NCBI GenBank assembly: GCA_964608555.1
Contig: CAZSPU010000002.1
Span: 1,395 to 65,394 of the forward strand
DNA from: an uncultured Candidatus Saccharibacteria bacterium
GTDB lineage: Bacteria > Patescibacteriota > Saccharimonadia > Saccharimonadales > Saccharimonadaceae
Length of the DNA stretch: 64,000 bases
Reading direction: 5' to 3'
Every line of letters begins with the position of its first letter. Position 1 is the stretch's first letter. Below the pieces are notes generated by a model, which saw nothing but the letters and a program-made list of their open reading frames with translations, ran no database searches and had not been told where the DNA came from. Both the position numbers and the translations under genes were made by a program. Shown here in pieces: positions 9,200 to 46,812 of this stretch.

Positions 9200-9419
9200 T
9201 TCGTGCGTAGTGGAACTGTAAGTTATGGCGATTTTATCTTCGGAGCTGGCATTTATGGTTATGTTTGGACTTTGCATACCCTCTTGGATTCCGAATTTCA
9301 TGATACCTACTATTTAGGTTTCGATCCAAGTCAAACTTTTCTGCACGGTAACAGCTTTAAAAGGCGTTATCATGGCCATTCTCTCCGCTGCTTAGTACGG
9401 TAAGGATAATGGTAATGGA
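9200..9419 (+). repeat. Variable cassette copy 3
   Basis: TTCGTGCGTAGTG...TCTCTCCGCTGCTTAGTACGGTAAGGATAATGGTAATGGA; 68 open codons FVRSGTVSYG...HGHSLRCLVR*. Confidence 0.9.
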
Positions 9420-9456
9420 TTGATACGCCTCACCAAAAGATTAAAGATTCTTGCTT

Positions 9457-9530
9457 ATTACAATCAAAAACCCGCACGAGGCTAACTCGCATGATATGTA
9501 CATGATAGCACAGTTGAGCTATTTTGTCAA
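9457..9530 (-). ncRNA. Promoter plus ~40-nt hairpin motif, candidate sRNA (copy A)
   Basis: TTGACA-17-TATCAT followed by ATATCATGCGAGTTAGCCTCGTGCGGGTTTTTGATTGTAAT; nearly identical to 23167-23206. Confidence 0.45.
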
Positions 9531-9533
9531 GTC

Positions 9534-9744
9534 TTCGTGCGTAGTGCAGATATTTTTGTGGAAGGTATGACTGGAGATACTATAATTGGCTATTTTTGGA
9601 CTGCTAATGCTGAATTTAGCTCCGAGTTTAATAATTCTGATAGAGTGTTTTGGAATCAGAATACAAGTTATGTAAGTGCTACATGGCAACGTTACGTTGG
9701 TTATCCTCTCCGCTGCCTAGTACGGTAGGGATAATGGTAATGGA
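9534..9744 (+). repeat. Variable cassette copy 4
   Basis: Both arms match consensus; 65 open codons FVRSADIF...[10 protein letters not shown]. Confidence 0.9.
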
Positions 9745-9843
9745 GCTATGAAAGCTGAATGACAGTTTTTCTTCATGCGCAATAGTTTTAATATATACGA
9801 TAAAACTGTATTATCGTTTGAAGATTATTTATTAATATTTCTA

Positions 9844-9950
9844 GGTAGGTATACTTTTTGGAGATGATTCGGAGTTACGACGAGAAGTAGCGCACAATAC
9901 CCGTAACGACGGGCTATTGTGACGCGCATCTCCAAAAAGCTATACCTACC
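9844..9950. repeat. 107-bp fold-back element with 23-bp terminal inverted repeats and an internal hairpin
   Basis: GGTAGGTATACTTTTTGGAGATG (9844-9866) pairs with CATCTCCAAAAAG-C-TATACCTACC (9927-9950). Inner stem CACAATA-CCCGT/ACGGG-C-TATTGTG. Confidence 0.75.
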
Positions 9951-9955
9951 GCCTT

Positions 9956-9987
9956 CTGCCTAGTACGGTAGGGATAATGGTAATGAA
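9956..9987 (+). repeat. Cassette 3' arm only (5'-truncated copy 5)
   Basis: CTGCCTAGTACGGTAGGGATAATGGTAATGAA, with no 5' arm or core upstream; abuts the recO stop codon. Confidence 0.85.
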
Positions 9988-16763: not shown

Positions 16764-16907
16764 GATGATATAATATTCCCGTTATGTCAAATTGAAAATG
16801 ACTACAAGCTTCACTGGATATATAATCTTCTGCCGCTTCGCGTCAGAAATGCCTGCTCATTCTCGGAAAAGAGAACAAGATTCTCTTTTCTCTCAGATAT
16901 TTGCCAC

Positions 16908-17118
16908 TTCGTGCGTAGTGGCGAAGTTTGGTATGCTGCTTATGTAGGGTGGAATAACTGTGCAAATATTTGGTCGTCAAGTGCTGAAAATGGCAACGCT
17001 TTCTTAAATAGTTTCTTTTTAAGTTTTGATGAGTTAAATATTAAGCCGTCCAACGTTCTCGTTCGTCTTGATGGTCGTCCTCTCCGCTGCCTAGTACGGT
17101 AGGGATAATGGTAATGGA
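16908..17118 (+). repeat. Variable cassette copy 6
   Basis: Both arms match consensus; 65 open codons FVRSGEVW...DGRPLRCLVR*; preceded by a perfect 10-bp hairpin (16866-16890). Confidence 0.9.
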
Positions 17119-22574: not shown

Positions 22575-23030
22575 ATGAATACTAAGAAAATCAAAGCTGC
22601 ATGTTTGACAATTGCAATGATTGGACTAAATATTTTATGCTTAGTGCCGGCAGTTTCCGCTACCGGCGTAATTGTAGCAGACGAGACCGGCGCGGGAGGA
22701 ATTACGGGTCTTCCAACGGGTGATGCTAGTACGACAGGCTCAGACAGTTACAACTATGTCGGGCAAATACAAGGCACGGGAGCTAAAACTGATTTGCTCG
22801 GCACCGTCCAGACGATCATTAATGTAGTAATTGGATTAGTAGGCGTGATTGCAGTCGTAGTGATGATCATAGGTGGCATCAACTTTATTACTTCGCAGGG
22901 CGACACTAATAAAGTTACGAAAGCCCGCAATACAATCCTGTATGGTGTCGTCGGTCTCATCGTGGCGCTACTCGCCTTTGCAATCGTCAACTTTGTCATG
23001 GATGAGATGTTAGGTATTCAAAATAGTTAA
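22575..23030 (+). CDS. CPR-type pilin / VirB2-TrbC-like small membrane protein
   Basis: Signal-like N-terminus, two long hydrophobic helices flanking 'GGINFITSQGDTNKVTKARNTILYGVVGL'. Confidence 0.75.
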   Translation: MNTKKIKAACLTIAMIGLNILCLVPAVSATGVIVADETGAGGITGLPTGDASTTGSDSYNYVGQIQGTGAKTDLLGTVQTIINVVIGLVGVIAVVVMIIGGINFITSQGDTNKVTKARNTILYGVVGLIVALLAFAIVNFVMDEMLGIQNS

Positions 23031-23687: not shown

Positions 23688-24338
23688 TTACGCGGCTGCA
23701 GCTGTATCGGCACCGGCGTCGGATGCTGATTCAGTGGAACCGTCAGCCTCGGACTCGGCTTCGCGAGCAGCAGCTTCGGCGGCTGAGTCGTAAACGTTCG
23801 CAACGACGGTATTTTGCGCCATTTCTTTGTCTGCAACTTCGACACGATCCGGCATCTGCAAATCTGCTACAGTTAATTTGTCGTCAACATCGGCAAGATT
23901 AGCAGCATTGACGATGATCTCTTGCGGCAAATCGGACGGACGAGCCTTGATTTCGATATCTTCCATAACCTGCAAGATAACCAAATGCTTTTTAGCAGCT
24001 TCGGACTGATCAAAATCAACTACACGAATCGGAGTGACTGCTTCTACGACTTCGTCGGCCGAAATTGCCTGAAACTCAACGTTGATAATACGGCGACTCA
24101 CTGGGTCGATTGCGATATTTTTTACTAAGGCGAGCTGCGTCTGGCCTTGAACGGTCAGCTCAACTGGAGAATGATAACCAACTTCATTCAATACTTTTTC
24201 GGTAAGATTGTAGCTGGAAGTAGTCATAATTGGATTTTCAAGACCATAAACCACTGACGGAATCATTCCTTCAGCACGCAAAGCTTTGAGTTTTTTACCA
24301 GTAGCGACGCGCTTTTCCAGCGATAATTGATTCGACAT
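23688..24338 (-). CDS. rplY: 50S ribosomal protein L25 / general stress protein Ctc
   Basis: KKLKALRAEGMIPSVVYG, NVEFQAI, IEIKARPSDLPQEIIVN, LTVADL; acidic Ala-rich tail; AAGGAG SD. Confidence 0.9.
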   Translation of the reverse strand: MSNQLSLEKRVATGKKLKALRAEGMIPSVVYGLENPIMTTSSYNLTEKVLNEVGYHSPVELTVQGQTQLALVKNIAIDPVSRRIINVEFQAISADEVVEAVTPIRVVDFDQSEAAKKHLVILQVMEDIEIKARPSDLPQEIIVNAANLADVDDKLTVADLQMPDRVEVADKEMAQNTVVANVYDSAAEAAAREAESEADGSTESASDAGADTAAAA

Positions 24339-24446
24339 AAAAAATAACTCCTTTGTTTGTACTATTTTACTACATTTTTCTTTCTCTAGCAAGCTTGGTT
24401 TTGATAGCGTAAAATCGTGCAAAATAAATATTTTACTGCTACCGTC

Positions 24447-24660
24447 TTCGTGCGTAGTGATGTAGTAAATCCAGGCGGCTTAATTTATAATGTTGGATTA
24501 TGGAGCAACTTATGGTCGTCGCGCGCCAATACTTGGGCTGGACTTCAACACGCCCTCATTTTATCATTTAATACTTTAAATGTTGACTCCTCTGCCAATG
24601 GCGAACGCCATCACGGCCGTCCTCTCCACTGTCTAGTACGGTAGGGATAATGATAATGGA
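24447..24660 (+). repeat. Variable cassette copy 7 (first of tandem triplet)
   Basis: 5' arm perfect; 3' arm CCTCTCCACTGTCTAGTACGGTAGGGATAATGATAATGGA; 66 open codons. Confidence 0.9.
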
Positions 24661-24667
24661 TATATCC

Positions 24668-24887
24668 TTCGTGCGTAGTGGGCTTGTTCATGTCAACCAT
24701 TTCATTCATTGGCCTGGATCTAATGGTTTTTATTGGACATCTCGTGCTGACGATTCTGGATTTCAGCGAAGTTTTAATTTTACGTTTGCTATATCAGGTG
24801 TAGACCCATTCAATAGTTATGGTAATGGCGACCGTTCCTTCGGCTTTCCTCTTCGCTGCCTAGTACGGTAGGGATAATGGTAATGAA
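24668..24887 (+). repeat. Variable cassette copy 8 (second of triplet)
   Basis: 5' arm perfect; 68 open codons FVRSGLVH...FGFPLRCLVR*. Confidence 0.9.
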
Positions 24888-24907
24888 TGATGCAGAACAA
24901 ACAACTC

Positions 24908-25124
24908 TTCGTGCGTAGTGATGTTGTTAATGCGAGCGGGCAAGTTAGTTCATACGCGGGCAACAATGGCTTAGTGTGGTCGTCGCGCGCTGGAACTAGT
25001 AGTGCCTTTCAAACTAGTTTTGATTTACCTTTTAACGCTACGGATGCTTATCCATCTAACAGTGGTGATCGTTGGCATGGCATGTCTCTCCGCTGCCTAG
25101 TACGGTAGGGATAATGGTAATGGA
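24908..25124 (+). repeat. Variable cassette copy 9 (third of triplet)
   Basis: 5' arm perfect; 67 open codons FVRSDVVN...HGMSLRCLVR*. Confidence 0.9.
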
Positions 25125-25155
25125 TAAGGTTAAATGTGCAGGCAAAAATATAAAC

Positions 25156-25189
25156 AAAAGTCCTAAGCGGAAATTGCCTAGGACTTTTT
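25156..25189. terminator. Bidirectional terminator between the cassette array and the surface-protein gene
   Basis: AAAAGTCCTA...TAGGACTTTT inverted repeat. Confidence 0.65.
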
Positions 25190-25206
25190 GTAAACAGAAC
25201 GTGCGT

Positions 25207-26142
25207 TTAGCCTTGTTTGCGTTTAAGCACGCGGCTCACAATCCAGAACACTGCGACAGCGACAAAGACGATAACTATAACCAGGAACCAGATTGGACAG
25301 AGGAAGACGGTTTTTTCGACTGTAGATGTTTCGTCAAAAATTGTAATGGTCTGCTTGACTTTGAAGATGCCGAGCTGCGGCGCATCGTCCCAAGAAACTT
25401 CATTGTAGCGTTCGGTTTCAGGGAAAATTACCTGCTGTTGTTTTTCTTCGGGAGTAGTATAGACGTTTTTACCACCGAAGAATGAGGAAACTTCCAGCTT
25501 ATAAGTAGCGGCTGTATAAACGTTGCCTGTATTCTTAACGGTAGATGTGGCAGTGACTGGCGGCTCAAACAGGAATCCAGGAATCTTATTATCAAGGATT
25601 TCTGCGGTTTCGCGAGTCTCACCAGCAATGTTGGAAAAGATAACGAACGCGACTTGCTGAATAGTTTTCACGCCTGTATCAGTGGGCGATTCATCGTCCG
25701 TCATTGATACTGTGATAGCTGCGTTTTGGTTACCGGCAGGGGCGTCATTCGGAACCTTGATATGGTATTTCACTTCCACCTGCGCGCCAGGTTCAACCGT
25801 ACCGGTACCACCCTCAACTGTGACCCACTCTTGCATGATGCTGTATTTATTTTCCTCCGAAAAGCTTGGCGTGTAATCACCACTCTTAACCGAGTATGGT
25901 TTGATATCCGTTTCAAAAGCATAAGCCTTCTGTCCTGAATTTTGCACCTTGAATGAGCCATGATATGTGCGCCCTGGCTGCAATTCTCCGACGTTGGCTT
26001 GCGTTGGCGAAATTTGTAAACGGTAGTCTGGAACATCTGCAGCAAGAGCTATCCCTGAATAATTATTTACGTTAAATATCATCGATAGACATGCAACGAG
26101 CGTAATCACCAGTGCACGCTTCAAAGTTTTTATCTTATTCAT
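25207..26142 (-). CDS. Cell-surface protein (signal peptide, Ig-like/DUF916-like domains, C-terminal TM anchor)
   Basis: LQISPT..., GSFKVQN, VKNTGNVY, C-terminal hydrophobic helix plus KRKQG tail; resembles WxL-interacting proteins. Confidence 0.55.
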   Translation of the reverse strand: MNKIKTLKRALVITLVACLSMIFNVNNYSGIALAADVPDYRLQISPTQANVGELQPGRTYHGSFKVQNSGQKAYAFETDIKPYSVKSGDYTPSFSEENKYSIMQEWVTVEGGTGTVEPGAQVEVKYHIKVPNDAPAGNQNAAITVSMTDDESPTDTGVKTIQQVAFVIFSNIAGETRETAEILDNKIPGFLFEPPVTATSTVKNTGNVYTAATYKLEVSSFFGGKNVYTTPEEKQQQVIFPETERYNEVSWDDAPQLGIFKVKQTITIFDETSTVEKTVFLCPIWFLVIVIVFVAVAVFWIVSRVLKRKQG

Positions 26143-26274: not shown

Positions 26275-26901
26275 CTAGCCTTCGGTTGGAGTAGAAGGAA
26301 GTTCTACTACATCTGTAGTGGCAGCGGTTGTAGCGGTGAGCAAAACAGTAGTCGAGTATTCGTCGGCTGCCTGAGATGCACTGACGCTAGCACCAAACTC
26401 AATAGTAATGGTATCGCCAGCATCAGCTGGTTTAGCAGTAGTCTTAGTTAATTCTGCTTCAGCAGTCAAGCCTTGATACGCGTCAGCAGTTCCACCTTCA
26501 GCGGCTGCTAGGCGATAGCCCCACTTAGATTCACCAACCTTTGGAACACCAGCGGCGATAGTTTCGGTATTACTAGCAGTCTTACCGACCATGCCAGTCT
26601 TAGTGCCGTCTTTAGGAGAAATCTTTACGACGTAGCCGCCAGCGTTGTTAGTCTTGACGTTAATCGTACCGGTACCAGAAACAATTGGACCGTTGTTGAT
26701 AACATTACCGAGGCTAACGGTTTTATTAGCTTGAGTAGTTTCAAGAGAGATGAAATCATTAACATTAAGATTAACAGTCATTTCATCTTGATTATAATAA
26801 TGTTGACCTTCAGTAGCAGCATACGAACTCAATGGTAAAGCAGCGACGCCAAGACCAGCGACTACGCCCAAAATGGCCAGGGCTTTTGTTGATTTAGACA
26901 T
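26275..26901 (-). CDS. Secreted Thr/Ala-rich beta-strand surface protein (WxL-like)
   Basis: Signal peptide, 'INVKTNNAGGY', 'SKWGYRL', 'DEYSTTVLLTAT'; paired with the DUF916-like gene. Confidence 0.55.
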   Translation of the reverse strand: MSKSTKALAILGVVAGLGVAALPLSSYAATEGQHYYNQDEMTVNLNVNDFISLETTQANKTVSLGNVINNGPIVSGTGTINVKTNNAGGYVVKISPKDGTKTGMVGKTASNTETIAAGVPKVGESKWGYRLAAAEGGTADAYQGLTAEAELTKTTAKPADAGDTITIEFGASVSASQAADEYSTTVLLTATTAATTDVVELPSTPTEG

Positions 26902-30502: not shown

Positions 30503-30731
30503 TTCGTGCGTAGTGATAGGACTGAGAATATCGGTTTTCTTTATTCTGGACACACAGCTCACCTTTGGAGCAGTTATGCTAATTATGGTACACATTTTCA
30601 GGACAGTTTCAGTCTTAGCTTCAATCTTACTATCAGCACTTCAGACGTCTACCCCTCCAACAACTTCTACAACTACCGTTACTTCGGTTATCCTCTCCGC
30701 TGCCTAGTACGGTGGGGATAATGGTAATGGA
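30503..30731 (+). repeat. Variable cassette copy 10 (stop codon TAG changed to TGG)
   Basis: 5' arm perfect; 3' arm CCTCTCCGCTGCCTAGTACGGTGGGGATAATGGTAATGGA; FVRSDRTE...[13 protein letters not shown]. Confidence 0.9.
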
Positions 30732-45675: not shown

Positions 45676-46812
45676 TTATTCTTCGGTGATTTCGGCTTGC
45701 TTTTCTTCGCAAGTCATACCATTGCCTTGGTAGAGAGTACGTAAAGCGGACAGACTGGTGTCTGGTGGATTTTCTGGTGAGACGGTAGTCGGATCGTTAC
45801 TCTCAATGTCAGGATAGAGACCAAAAGCTACGCCGTAAGCTGGATTAGTGCGCAAATCATTACCATCTGCTGAAACAACTGAACTAACTGTATTGTTAAA
45901 CTGCTCAATACTCATAGCAACATTCAAACCGTATTGTTCGCGATAAGTTGCGGCTTGTTGCTCGAACTCGGTACGCATTGACTCAAGTGTGGCAGCTGCA
46001 GCTTCGTTGGTGGCGAAAGTCATCTCTGTGCCCATCGCCAGTGACTGTATTTCATCATTGCGATAACGCGCTTCAATAGAAATCCCCATAGCGGTCGGCA
46101 TCTCGCCTTCAGCGGTCATACCTTCACCGAGATTTGGTAGATCACCGCCTAGGCGACAAGATAGAATTGTTTCGGTCTTGGACTGATCACCGGATGGCTG
46201 ATTTTGATCATCATTGTTATCTTGGTCAGTAGAGTTGCCAGAATTGCCCGAATTACCTTGATTAGAATTATTATTCTTGGGGGCCTGCATCCACAAAATA
46301 CAAAAGATAATGGCAGCGACAGCAAATACTACTGTCAGCAAACCTAAGATGAGATTGAGAGTACGATGACCGCTGCCGGACTTTGGAGAAGTGCCGGGAG
46401 TTTGCTGGTCAAGGGTCGGATTAGTGTTGTTGAAAGGCGAAAACGGCTGTGCTGGAGCAGGGCTGGGGCTACTAGCGGACGACTGAGTCGGAGCTGCAGA
46501 AGTATTAGCCATATCATTGACGACGGGCGCGCCATTAATCCCTGGGGCAGCGTTCGCATCAGCCGGACCACCCGCAGTAGAGCTCGGATTGTCGGCTGGC
46601 GAGCTAGCAGGAGCCGTATTAAAAGCTGGCATGGAGTTGGGCGATGCTGGTGGAGTAGCTGGAGCGGCATTATAATTATTATTAGCTGCGCTGGCCATAA
46701 CTAATGGATCAGTTGATAAATTCTGCGACGGCATATTTGGTGCTGGATTTGGACCAGCTGGCGCCAAACCTGGCGTGAGCGGCGATGGTGAATAGTTATC
46801 TTGCGGATTCAT
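45676..46812 (-). CDS. Hypothetical single-pass membrane protein with Pro/Ala/Asn-rich N-terminus
   Basis: Low-complexity first ~150 aa, TM LILGLLTVVFAVAAIIFCILW, Asn/Gln linker, Cys-flanked extracellular domain. Confidence 0.7.
   Translation of the reverse strand: MNPQDNYSPSPLTPGLAPAGPNPAPNMPSQNLSTDPLVMASAANNNYNAAPATPPASPNSMPAFNTAPASSPADNPSSTAGGPADANAAPGINGAPVVNDMANTSAAPTQSSASSPSPAPAQPFSPFNNTNPTLDQQTPGTSPKSGSGHRTLNLILGLLTVVFAVAAIIFCILWMQAPKNNNSNQGNSGNSGNSTDQDNNDDQNQPSGDQSKTETILSCRLGGDLPNLGEGMTAEGEMPTAMGISIEARYRNDEIQSLAMGTEMTFATNEAAAATLESMRTEFEQQAATYREQYGLNVAMSIEQFNNTVSSVVSADGNDLRTNPAYGVAFGLYPDIESNDPTTVSPENPPDTSLSALRTLYQGNGMTCEEKQAEITEE

Follow-up and report, generated by a model that had tools for sequence, protein, structure and literature searches.

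Diversity-generating retroelements (DGRs) diversify one to a handful of genes, whereas the archives that serve antigenic variation hold tens of copies and are made without a retroelement. Silent-cassette systems that operate by gene conversion include Neisseria pilE/pilS, Borrelia vlsE/vls and the MgPa repeats of Mycoplasma genitalium, and in avian and rabbit immunoglobulin genes an AID-driven gene conversion draws on pseudogene V segments that lie in a single upstream array. Here we describe three short coding units arranged head-to-tail in a stretch of 64,000 nucleotides (the window; contig CAZSPU010000002.1, positions 1,395 to 65,394) from an uncultured Candidatus Saccharibacteria bacterium. 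These units, together with the rest of a family of ~280 members in the same genome, are in all probability silent cassettes derived from the variable regions (VRs) of DGR targets. That they form a working archive, which exchanges sequence with an expressed adhesin by gene conversion guided by their conserved arms, is the interpretation we favor, with appreciably less assurance.

The three units were delimited by a 13-nt word at their 5′ ends (TTCGTGCGTAGTG, exact; 24447, 24668 and 24908) and a 20-nt word in their 3′ parts (CTAGTACGGTAGGGATAATG; 24633, 24860 and 25097), which occur 9 and 10 times in the window, against 1.5 and 0 copies expected by chance. A repeat finder returned the same three-copy families, and the three units to which an initial annotation of this DNA had given these starts are borne out by both approaches; its linkers of 7 and 20 nt become 6 and 19 nt here, a difference that lies only in where the arm is taken to end. 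Each unit consists of a 15-nt 5′ arm, a unique core of ~145 nt and a 46-nt 3′ arm that extends 17 nt beyond the stop codon, the 3′ arm of unit 1 being slightly degenerate. Every unit is a single open frame that begins with FVRS and ends in (P/S)L(R/H)CLVR and a stop (Table 1).

The source genome (G000) is a fragmented metagenome-assembled genome (MAG) from mouse gut, with 988,615 bases in 44 contigs and an estimated completeness of 95.6%. Genome-wide, the 3′ word was found 286 times and the 5′ word 277 times; a reversed-pattern control was found 0 times. Pairing of arms gave 274 units with lengths of 194–224 nt, distributed in three-nt steps with modes at 206 and 209 nt. In nearly all of them (266/274) the length leaves the same remainder on division by three, and in 255 the frame runs uninterrupted from FVRS up to the stop codon. 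The cassettes amount to 59.6 kb, or 6.0% of the assembly, and 260 of the 274 lie outside long frames. They are distributed over 140 arrays, which include 61 solitary units and reach a maximum of seven units, and the genes or features next to arrays occur in all four combinations of orientation. A position profile of the family shows hardly any variation over the first ~15 nt and the last 46 nt, synonymous sites and the 17 post-stop nucleotides included; in the core, the major allele has a frequency of ~50% at each codon position. An exact 25-nt arm sequence was absent from the other species-representative genomes and from JGI metagenome contigs.

The origin of the family is indicated by its homologues in related genomes. 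A profile built from nine window copies matched 23 of 24 same-genus genomes, with 1 to ~90 matches each versus at least 150 in the source genome; outside the genus, the profile search detected the family in just 1 of 16 other families of the order. Relatives that carry it are Candidatus Saccharibacteria from mouse, ruminant and human gut, including Ca. Nanosyncoccus. Three low-copy congeners (G001, G007 and G022) carry the homologous sequence as the VR that closes a surface protein; an Asn-rich non-coding copy nearby is the template repeat (TR), and a reverse transcriptase is located beside it. The homologous VR segment comprises ~65 residues at the C-terminus of a pilin-like FISUMP protein (Fibrobacter succinogenes major paralogous domain; TIGR02145/PF09603). 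In G007, differences between VR and TR are confined to TR adenines, and TR/VR homology starts at FARSG (FxRSG), the same boundary as that of the cassette 5′ arm. On the FISUMP profile TIGR02145 (cut-off 41.65), the match of the G007 target has 68 bits and extends to profile position 175 of 176, which makes the cassette the equivalent of the final third of the domain. Targets in the source genome score 30 bits on the same profile, which is under the cut-off. Within the genus, cassette number seems to follow genome size: genomes of 0.9–1.0 Mb have from 50 to ~280 cassettes, and most of those of 0.6–0.8 Mb have fewer than 15.

Three further species (G014, G010 and G075) have expanded families, each with its own invariant arms, and in G014 a connection to mutagenesis can be seen. 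Its TR adjoins the reverse transcriptase, and its putative target VR differs from the TR at 20 of 53 adenines and at 0 of 133 other bases. Two free-standing G014 cassettes differ from the TR in the same manner, one at 20/53 adenines and 2/133 non-adenines and the other at 21/53 and 8/133, and the remaining cassettes are progressively more diverged. Orphan cassettes therefore arose either through direct writing on the part of the DGR or as copies of a fresh VR, and then aged. The 3′ tail of G014 cassettes is VR-type rather than TR-type, indicating that the units derive from VR DNA and not from stray TR complementary DNA (cDNA). As judged from sequence comparison, then, the family arose from DGR-diversified VRs. 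Other arrangements were noted among the relatives. At locus L023 (CANENS010000002.1, 2764–5701), seven tandem cassettes lie directly downstream of a reverse transcriptase, at the site that a single TR occupies in other relatives; these seven look VR-like, not Asn-rich. In G075 (93% complete) no DGR reverse transcriptase was detected, yet the genome has dozens of cassettes, with a conserved 3′ arm and unconserved 5′ ends.

The source genome retains part of such a system. One intact DGR-type reverse transcriptase is present (C6:1246–2577; 443 aa, YVDD motif, RVT_1 match), and it is 49% identical to the G007 enzyme that lies beside TR and VR. No TR was found in this genome: 0 of 282 hidden Markov model hits were Asn-rich, and 250–400 nt downstream of the reverse transcriptase, where closer relatives have their Asn-rich TR, there is another gene. 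Should the genome have a TR, it may lie unassembled where contig C6 begins. Judged by the TR, the units of the source genome fail to classify as active DGR VRs. A mutagenesis footprint can nonetheless be discerned. Columns that are Asn in the TRs of six relatives are the most variable ones in the cassettes of the source genome (3.51 vs 2.50 bits), and they keep NNY codons, with a pyrimidine in the third position in 78% of cases overall and up to 91%. In the largest cluster of related cassettes, consensus-A columns are 1.4 times as variable as the others. Non-A columns still vary by 26–50%, on which ground we rejected the possibility of one hidden TR per length class, and differences between related cassettes are mostly transitions, spread equally over the three codon positions. 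The DGR footprint in the source genome thus appears to be present but eroded, and old.

We examined the units for signals that would allow their translation. An in-frame ATG lies upstream of 63 of the 255 open units but is accompanied by a Shine-Dalgarno (SD) sequence in just 3, and for the GTG within FVRS an SD was seen in 6 of the 255; the corresponding baselines are 38% for the first ATG of long open reading frames (ORFs) and 4.7% for random 15-mers. In the triplet, in-frame ATGs precede unit 2 (24650; MIMDISFVRS) and unit 3 (24887; MMQNKQLFVRS), as the initial annotation had observed for what it numbered copies 8 and 9, and the only upstream start candidate of unit 1 is a GTG. The ATG at 24887 is formed by the last two bases of the unit 2 arm and the beginning of linker 2. 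Across the genome, the ATG of a 3′ arm is in frame with the next unit at 44 of 134 junctions (33%), which is the rate expected by chance and makes the in-frame ATGs of triplet units 2 and 3 a coincidence. Upstream of the triplet, no match to a promoter was found on the plus strand; the sole promoter match in the 109-nt gap before unit 1 (24392–24364) is on the minus strand and constitutes the promoter-like site of the bL25 gene. No signal peptide is apparent in the triplet translations, and the G000 assembly contains no real long ORF that ends in a cassette. On the available sequence evidence, the cassettes are not translated by the usual signals.

Their frames are kept open all the same. The cores of the 266 in-frame units, 13,723 codons in all, contain 4 TAR and 0 TGA stops, compared with 279 TAR codons expected (p about 1e-106) when the third-position purine rate of CA_, AA_ and GA_ codons, which ranges from 11 to 40%, is applied to TA_; in the TR-Asn columns alone, 58 TAR would be expected. 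At two former Asn columns TGG is strongly enriched (255 TGG vs 14 TGY), an excess that is not due to adenine mutagenesis, because AAY codons cannot yield TGG. Stop avoidance, taken together with equal divergence over codon positions, means that the frame is protected and the residues are free. This is the pattern expected of donor or archive copies, and not of drifting junk or of a conserved small protein. The proposal in the initial annotation that the array is an archive rather than an operon agrees with what we see: units without start codons, SD sequences or promoter, ATG frames at chance, and reading frames that stay open.

Comparison of cores showed that sequence has moved between units. 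In about 25 cases, two units at unlinked loci match exactly or almost exactly over the core, and the identity ends at the arms. The few differences within such twin pairs are mostly transitions, and several pairs differ in the arms and not in the core, as would be left by a conversion tract that ends inside the arms. A further 138 pairs have exact words of 16–119 nt in common and are otherwise dissimilar, and are thus mosaics; unit 1 of the triplet forms such a pair with a unit at C4:32703 (48-nt exact word, 85% identity over 155 nt). The segment that comprises the end of unit 2, linker 2 and the start of unit 3 is 87% identical to C5:53649–53757. recA is present in the source genome. Cores have evidently been copied from cassette to cassette, whole or in segments, with end points in the arms.

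Correspondence between a cassette and an expressed gene is clearest in G010. The arms of its 562-aa full-length target are exactly those of the free cassettes, and the VR core of the target (146 nt) is identical at 146/146 positions to a free-standing cassette on another contig and is also 100% identical to a truncated pre-VR copy. The latter, at L115, consists of truncated pre-VR sequence and a cassette copy. The G010 TR that lies beside the reverse transcriptase (L134, G010 C7, 2830–3010) is of another subtype, ending in GFSVRCL and with different arms; the ~90 free cassettes of this species are likewise without a TR.

In the source genome, two target-like proteins were found. The one on C11 has diverged arms, and its gene is implausible as a recipient. 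The second, on C41, runs off the end of its contig at a 55-mer that also starts C6, the reverse-transcriptase contig, and is also present inside C14, where the remaining pre-VR coding sequence and then a cassette with family arms come after it. The 3′ end of the target is therefore a collapsed or branching assembly repeat. The unit in question, C14(-)28272, has family arms and 158 nt of target pre-VR sequence, is joined to the target body on C41 by the 100%-identical 55-mer, and has 2 core mismatches relative to its twins C6:42237 and C24:9409. Thus, a cassette core that equals the VR of an expressed gene appears directly in G010, and in the source genome it is supported only through the assembly-graph link. 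A promoter-like TGTGTATAAT followed by 158 nt of target pre-VR coding sequence is present there in two copies that are 95% identical (C6:1–188 and C14:5151–5336); the C6 copy adjoins the reverse-transcriptase operon, and the 55-mer (C41:1–55) ties both to the target body. These pre-VR copies may be TR-like transcription units or assembly branches.

Based on these observations, we propose that each member of the triplet is a silent copy, outside any gene, of the final ~65 codons of a surface adhesin, that is, of the VR of a DGR target, and that this adhesin would be a pilin-like protein ending in a FISUMP/C-type-lectin-like domain. The arms correspond to the two A-poor ends of the VR coding sequence together with 17 nt of a putative recognition tail downstream, and exchange would take place by RecA-type homologous recombination. 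Use in the expressed gene, or copying from it, would purge nonsense codons and leave amino acids free, and it would keep the arms identical within a genome and different between species. We also put forward, as a tentative extension, a two-tier machine in which the DGR writes hypermutated variants into gene-less cassettes and the archive is then shuffled into the tip of an expressed pilus-like adhesin by arm-guided gene conversion. The writing step would be of the kind seen in G014, and the shuffling step of the kind suggested by G010 and the source genome.

Several points count against an archive in use. Switching at the expressed gene has never been observed, and the link between target body and cassette in the source genome is a 55-nt contig overlap in a fragmented MAG. 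The two G014 cassettes with few non-adenine differences are fresh from the current TR, and orphans can therefore be plain DGR recipients without downstream use. Equal divergence over codon positions resembles neutral drift. With ~280 donors, selection on each would be weak, so that purging of stops would need frequent turnover. Finally, no mechanism for the seeding of new loci was found, there being neither a target-site duplication nor a significant hairpin in the 3′ arm (z about 0).

One alternative survives best, although we regard it as unlikely. The units could be orphan DGR recipients without function, duplicated VR ends that retain the recognition arms, are occasionally rewritten by the DGR and then drift, with frames that stay open through the stop-free chemistry of AAY codons and not through selection. 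Such an origin would account for free units in G014 that differ from their TR nearly only at adenines, for the eroded NNY and adenine-bias footprint in the source genome, for differences that fall equally on the codon positions and for the absence of expression signals. It is difficult to reconcile with a genome in which no TR was found and the usual site downstream of the reverse transcriptase is occupied by another gene, or with cores that differ at non-A positions and in length, which argues against recent rewriting. Recent copies are faithful and bear no mutagenesis. Moreover, TAR is nearly absent despite the third-position purines in CA_, GA_ and AA_ codons, and the TGG codons at the two former Asn columns are beyond what adenine mutagenesis of AAY can give.

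Less probable still, in our estimation, is a selfish mobile element, MITE-like (miniature inverted-repeat transposable element) or retro-copied, that spreads from arm to arm, perhaps by means of the DGR reverse transcriptase, with tandem arrays as preferred landing sites. Identical units at unlinked loci whose identity ends exactly at the arms would be expected of such an element, as would a family that makes up 6% of a genome and ranges from 1 to ~280 copies across one genus. The triplet locus also fits. In 11 other species of the genus, the bL25 locus (~1.5 kb on each side) contains no cassette, and in two of the 11 the gap is just ~120–170 nt; since the locus is cassette-free in these species, the triplet was gained in this lineage. 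Target-site duplications at arrays, however, were as frequent as in a shuffled control, and the arms are not inverted repeats according to the repeat finder. The cores are hypervariable, unlike those of a recently spread element, and gene conversion between existing units explains arm-bounded identity equally well. Several twin pairs differ in their arms but not in their cores, and the VR-type 3′ tail in G014 indicates that the units are not cDNA copies of the TR. The term "expanding", which the initial annotation applied to the array, goes beyond these results, which show only copying or exchange of cores between existing units and a locus that is empty in 11 other species.

Ordinary small paralogous genes for secreted or cytoplasmic mini-proteins of 62–75 aa would explain why 93% of the frames are open and stops strongly avoided, and in-frame ATGs do precede triplet units 2 and 3; we nevertheless consider such genes very improbable. 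There is no conserved start codon or SD, junction ATGs are in frame at the chance rate, the triplet has no promoter ahead of it, its translations show no evident signal peptide, and purifying selection on residues is absent. Nucleotide-invariant arms, 17 non-coding bases included, are left unexplained by protein function. Structure prediction suggests in addition that the segment would fold poorly alone. AlphaFold was applied to a homologue whose C-terminus is canonical (P0008; 519 aa, 55-row alignment, predicted local distance difference test score [pLDDT] of 88). In this model, the residues equivalent to a cassette make up the final four strands of a C-terminal domain of ~300 residues, with a pLDDT of ~96. 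A single cassette peptide gave a pLDDT of 55, which is weak evidence, as its alignment had nine rows only.

Sequence and structure searches provided limited information about the protein itself. Cassette peptides had no match in Pfam or NCBIfam, even at E 10, one cassette peptide had no match in a search of 5.8 billion protein clusters, and searches of PDB sequences with the target and with the cassette profile found no match. When the full-length target model was compared with PDB and viral libraries by Foldseek, weak matches were obtained for an N-terminal beta-sandwich that is chaperone-usher pilin-like, and no C-type-lectin match was obtained; the fold class of the C-terminal domain is therefore assigned by the FISUMP profile match alone. 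The N-terminal domain of the G007 target has a sub-cut-off NCBIfam match to the C-domain of the Pam pilin of the candidate phyla radiation (CPR). Pam pili, a donor-strand-exchange type specific to the CPR, were described only recently (PMC13278184), and we regard the Pam-pilin connection as no more than a lead.

The initial annotation called the array "CRISPR-like". An acquisition array of the CRISPR or integron type, with foreign or captured DNA recorded between repeats, can be dismissed for practical purposes: repeats do alternate with unique segments and a terminator stands at the end, but the supposed spacers share homology with each other and with a domain of a host protein, the supposed repeats are the conserved coding ends plus the putative recognition tail of a DGR VR, 61 of the 140 arrays are scattered single units, no cas1 was found in our search, recently copied units show no leader-end polarity within arrays, and Rfam gave no match over 24200–25300.

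Features of the window are collected in Table 1. The array was originally described as ending at a terminator next to a pair of surface-protein genes; hairpin and genes are indeed there, but the hairpin is scored for the convergent minus-strand gene, even though its ends, AAAAGTCC...GGACTTTT, are symmetric and it would stop read-through from the array too. The nearer of the two genes is the flank of the array and lies outside the cassette family. Exact-protein look-ups for three flanking genes gave no match, and no other assembly of the species was found. In total, the window contains five cassette loci. A fold-back element of ~80 nt stands directly 5′ of the cassette 5′ arm at the solitary cassette 16908–17118 (element at 16830–16907), at G000 C1(-) near 45800–46010 and at many other first or solitary units. 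It has the form ...cttcgcgtcagaaatgcctgc...gaaaagagaacaagattctcttttc...atatttgccac, is sometimes doubled, and has a 5′ end of its own, CTTCGCGTCAGAAATG, that is similar to the cassette arm CTTCGTGCGTAGTG. Elsewhere in the window, a 151-aa protein (22575–23030, plus strand) matches the Mbov_0395 pilin-like conjugal-transfer family with 44.9 bits against a cut-off of 40.

Table 1. Triplet, flanking features and further cassette loci (window coordinates; cassettes outside the triplet located by their arm words).
Feature	Position	Strand	Remarks
Cassette unit 1	24447–24661	+	Frame FVRS...PLHCLVR, stop TAG 24642–24644
Linker 1, 6 nt	24662–24667	+	Arm ATG (24650) falls in frame with unit 2 by chance
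Cassette unit 2	24668–24888	+	Frame FVRS...PLRCLVR, stop TAG 24869–24871
Linker 2, 19 nt	24889–24907	+	Between units 2 and 3
Cassette unit 3	24908–25125	+	Frame FVRS...SLRCLVR, stop TAG 25106–25108
Terminator-like hairpin, 13 pairs, T-run	25156–25188	scored on −	Serves convergent gene 25207–26142
Ribosomal protein bL25/Ctc gene	23688–24338	−	Transcription points away from array
Surface protein, 311 aa, signal peptide, C-terminal membrane anchor	25207–26142	−	Weak choice-of-anchor-D match
Secreted protein, 208 aa, signal peptide	26275–26901	−	Weak sub-cut-off NCBIfam match to CPR Pam pilus pilin C-domain
Two tandem cassettes, same family	400–815	−	
Two cassettes and a 3′-arm-only remnant	9200–9987	+	Cassettes 9200–9419 and 9534–9744; remnant ~9956–9987
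Solitary cassette	16908–17118	+	~80-nt fold-back element 5′ of it
Solitary cassette	30503–30731	+	Stop mutated, TAG to TGG

It is unusual for a gene-poor episymbiont with a genome of 1 Mb to give 6% of its DNA to ~280 silent copies of one 65-residue binding-site segment. Programs that call genes or detect DGRs would overlook or misinterpret such units. Were the archive to feed the adhesin, it would represent a new bacterial way to store and redeploy hypermutated ligand-binding sites, and it would bear on how Saccharibacteria recognize their bacterial hosts and switch between them. If the two-tier machine exists, the combination of hypermutation by a retroelement with gene conversion in the style of pseudogenes would be a bacterial counterpart of immunoglobulin diversification, and the episymbiont could retarget itself to receptors on the host surface and keep earlier solutions.

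Among described systems, CRISPR arrays resemble the triplet only in their alternation of conserved and unique segments; the cores of the cassettes are coding and mutually homologous, and neither cas1, polarity nor a foreign origin was found. Kinship with DGRs, such as that of Bordetella phage BPP-1 (brt/TR/mtd) and the chromosomal elements of Treponema denticola and Legionella, is much closer. The cassette is homologous to the VR of a C-type-lectin-like (FISUMP) target, it has the 5′ boundary of TR/VR homology seen in a congener, and its diversified stretch lies between A-poor arms. The source genome encodes an intact DGR-type reverse transcriptase, its cassettes show what appears to be a residual adenine/NNY footprint, and the least diverged free-standing cassettes of G014 are true products of adenine mutagenesis. 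Unlike in these elements, the VR-type units of the source genome number ~280 and stand outside any gene, no TR was found, cores vary in length and also at positions other than A, recent copies are faithful, and no significant hairpin was found at the 3′ arm. The largest numbers of DGR targets in a survey were 7 non-adjacent or 8 tandem ones, and CPR DGRs usually have a single target (PMC5758913). Our literature search found no paper on hundreds of VR cassettes in Saccharibacteria, and the repertoire of the source genome is far beyond any DGR repertoire that we found described.

The avian and rabbit immunoglobulin genes offer an analogy only, being eukaryotic and AID-driven and having their donors in one upstream array; in both cases, non-expressed variable segments feed, or in Saccharibacteria would feed, one expressed binding-site gene, with hypermutation and gene conversion acting on the same target. 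For function, the closest analogues are the systems of the pilE/pilS, vlsE/vls and MgPa type. The cassettes differ from these in that the archive of the source genome is ten-fold or more larger, with each cassette only ~200 nt long, and is scattered over most intergenic regions instead of a few loci. Switching has not been observed for the Saccharibacteria cassettes, and their diversity was first made by a reverse transcriptase and not only by mutation and recombination. What they have in common is extensive: partial copies, without promoter or start and often in tandem, of the variable part of a surface or pilus protein; short conserved flanks that recur at the expression locus, open frames and mosaic copies; in G010, a silent copy identical to the expressed variable segment; and, as with the MgPa repeats, a share of several per cent of a small genome.

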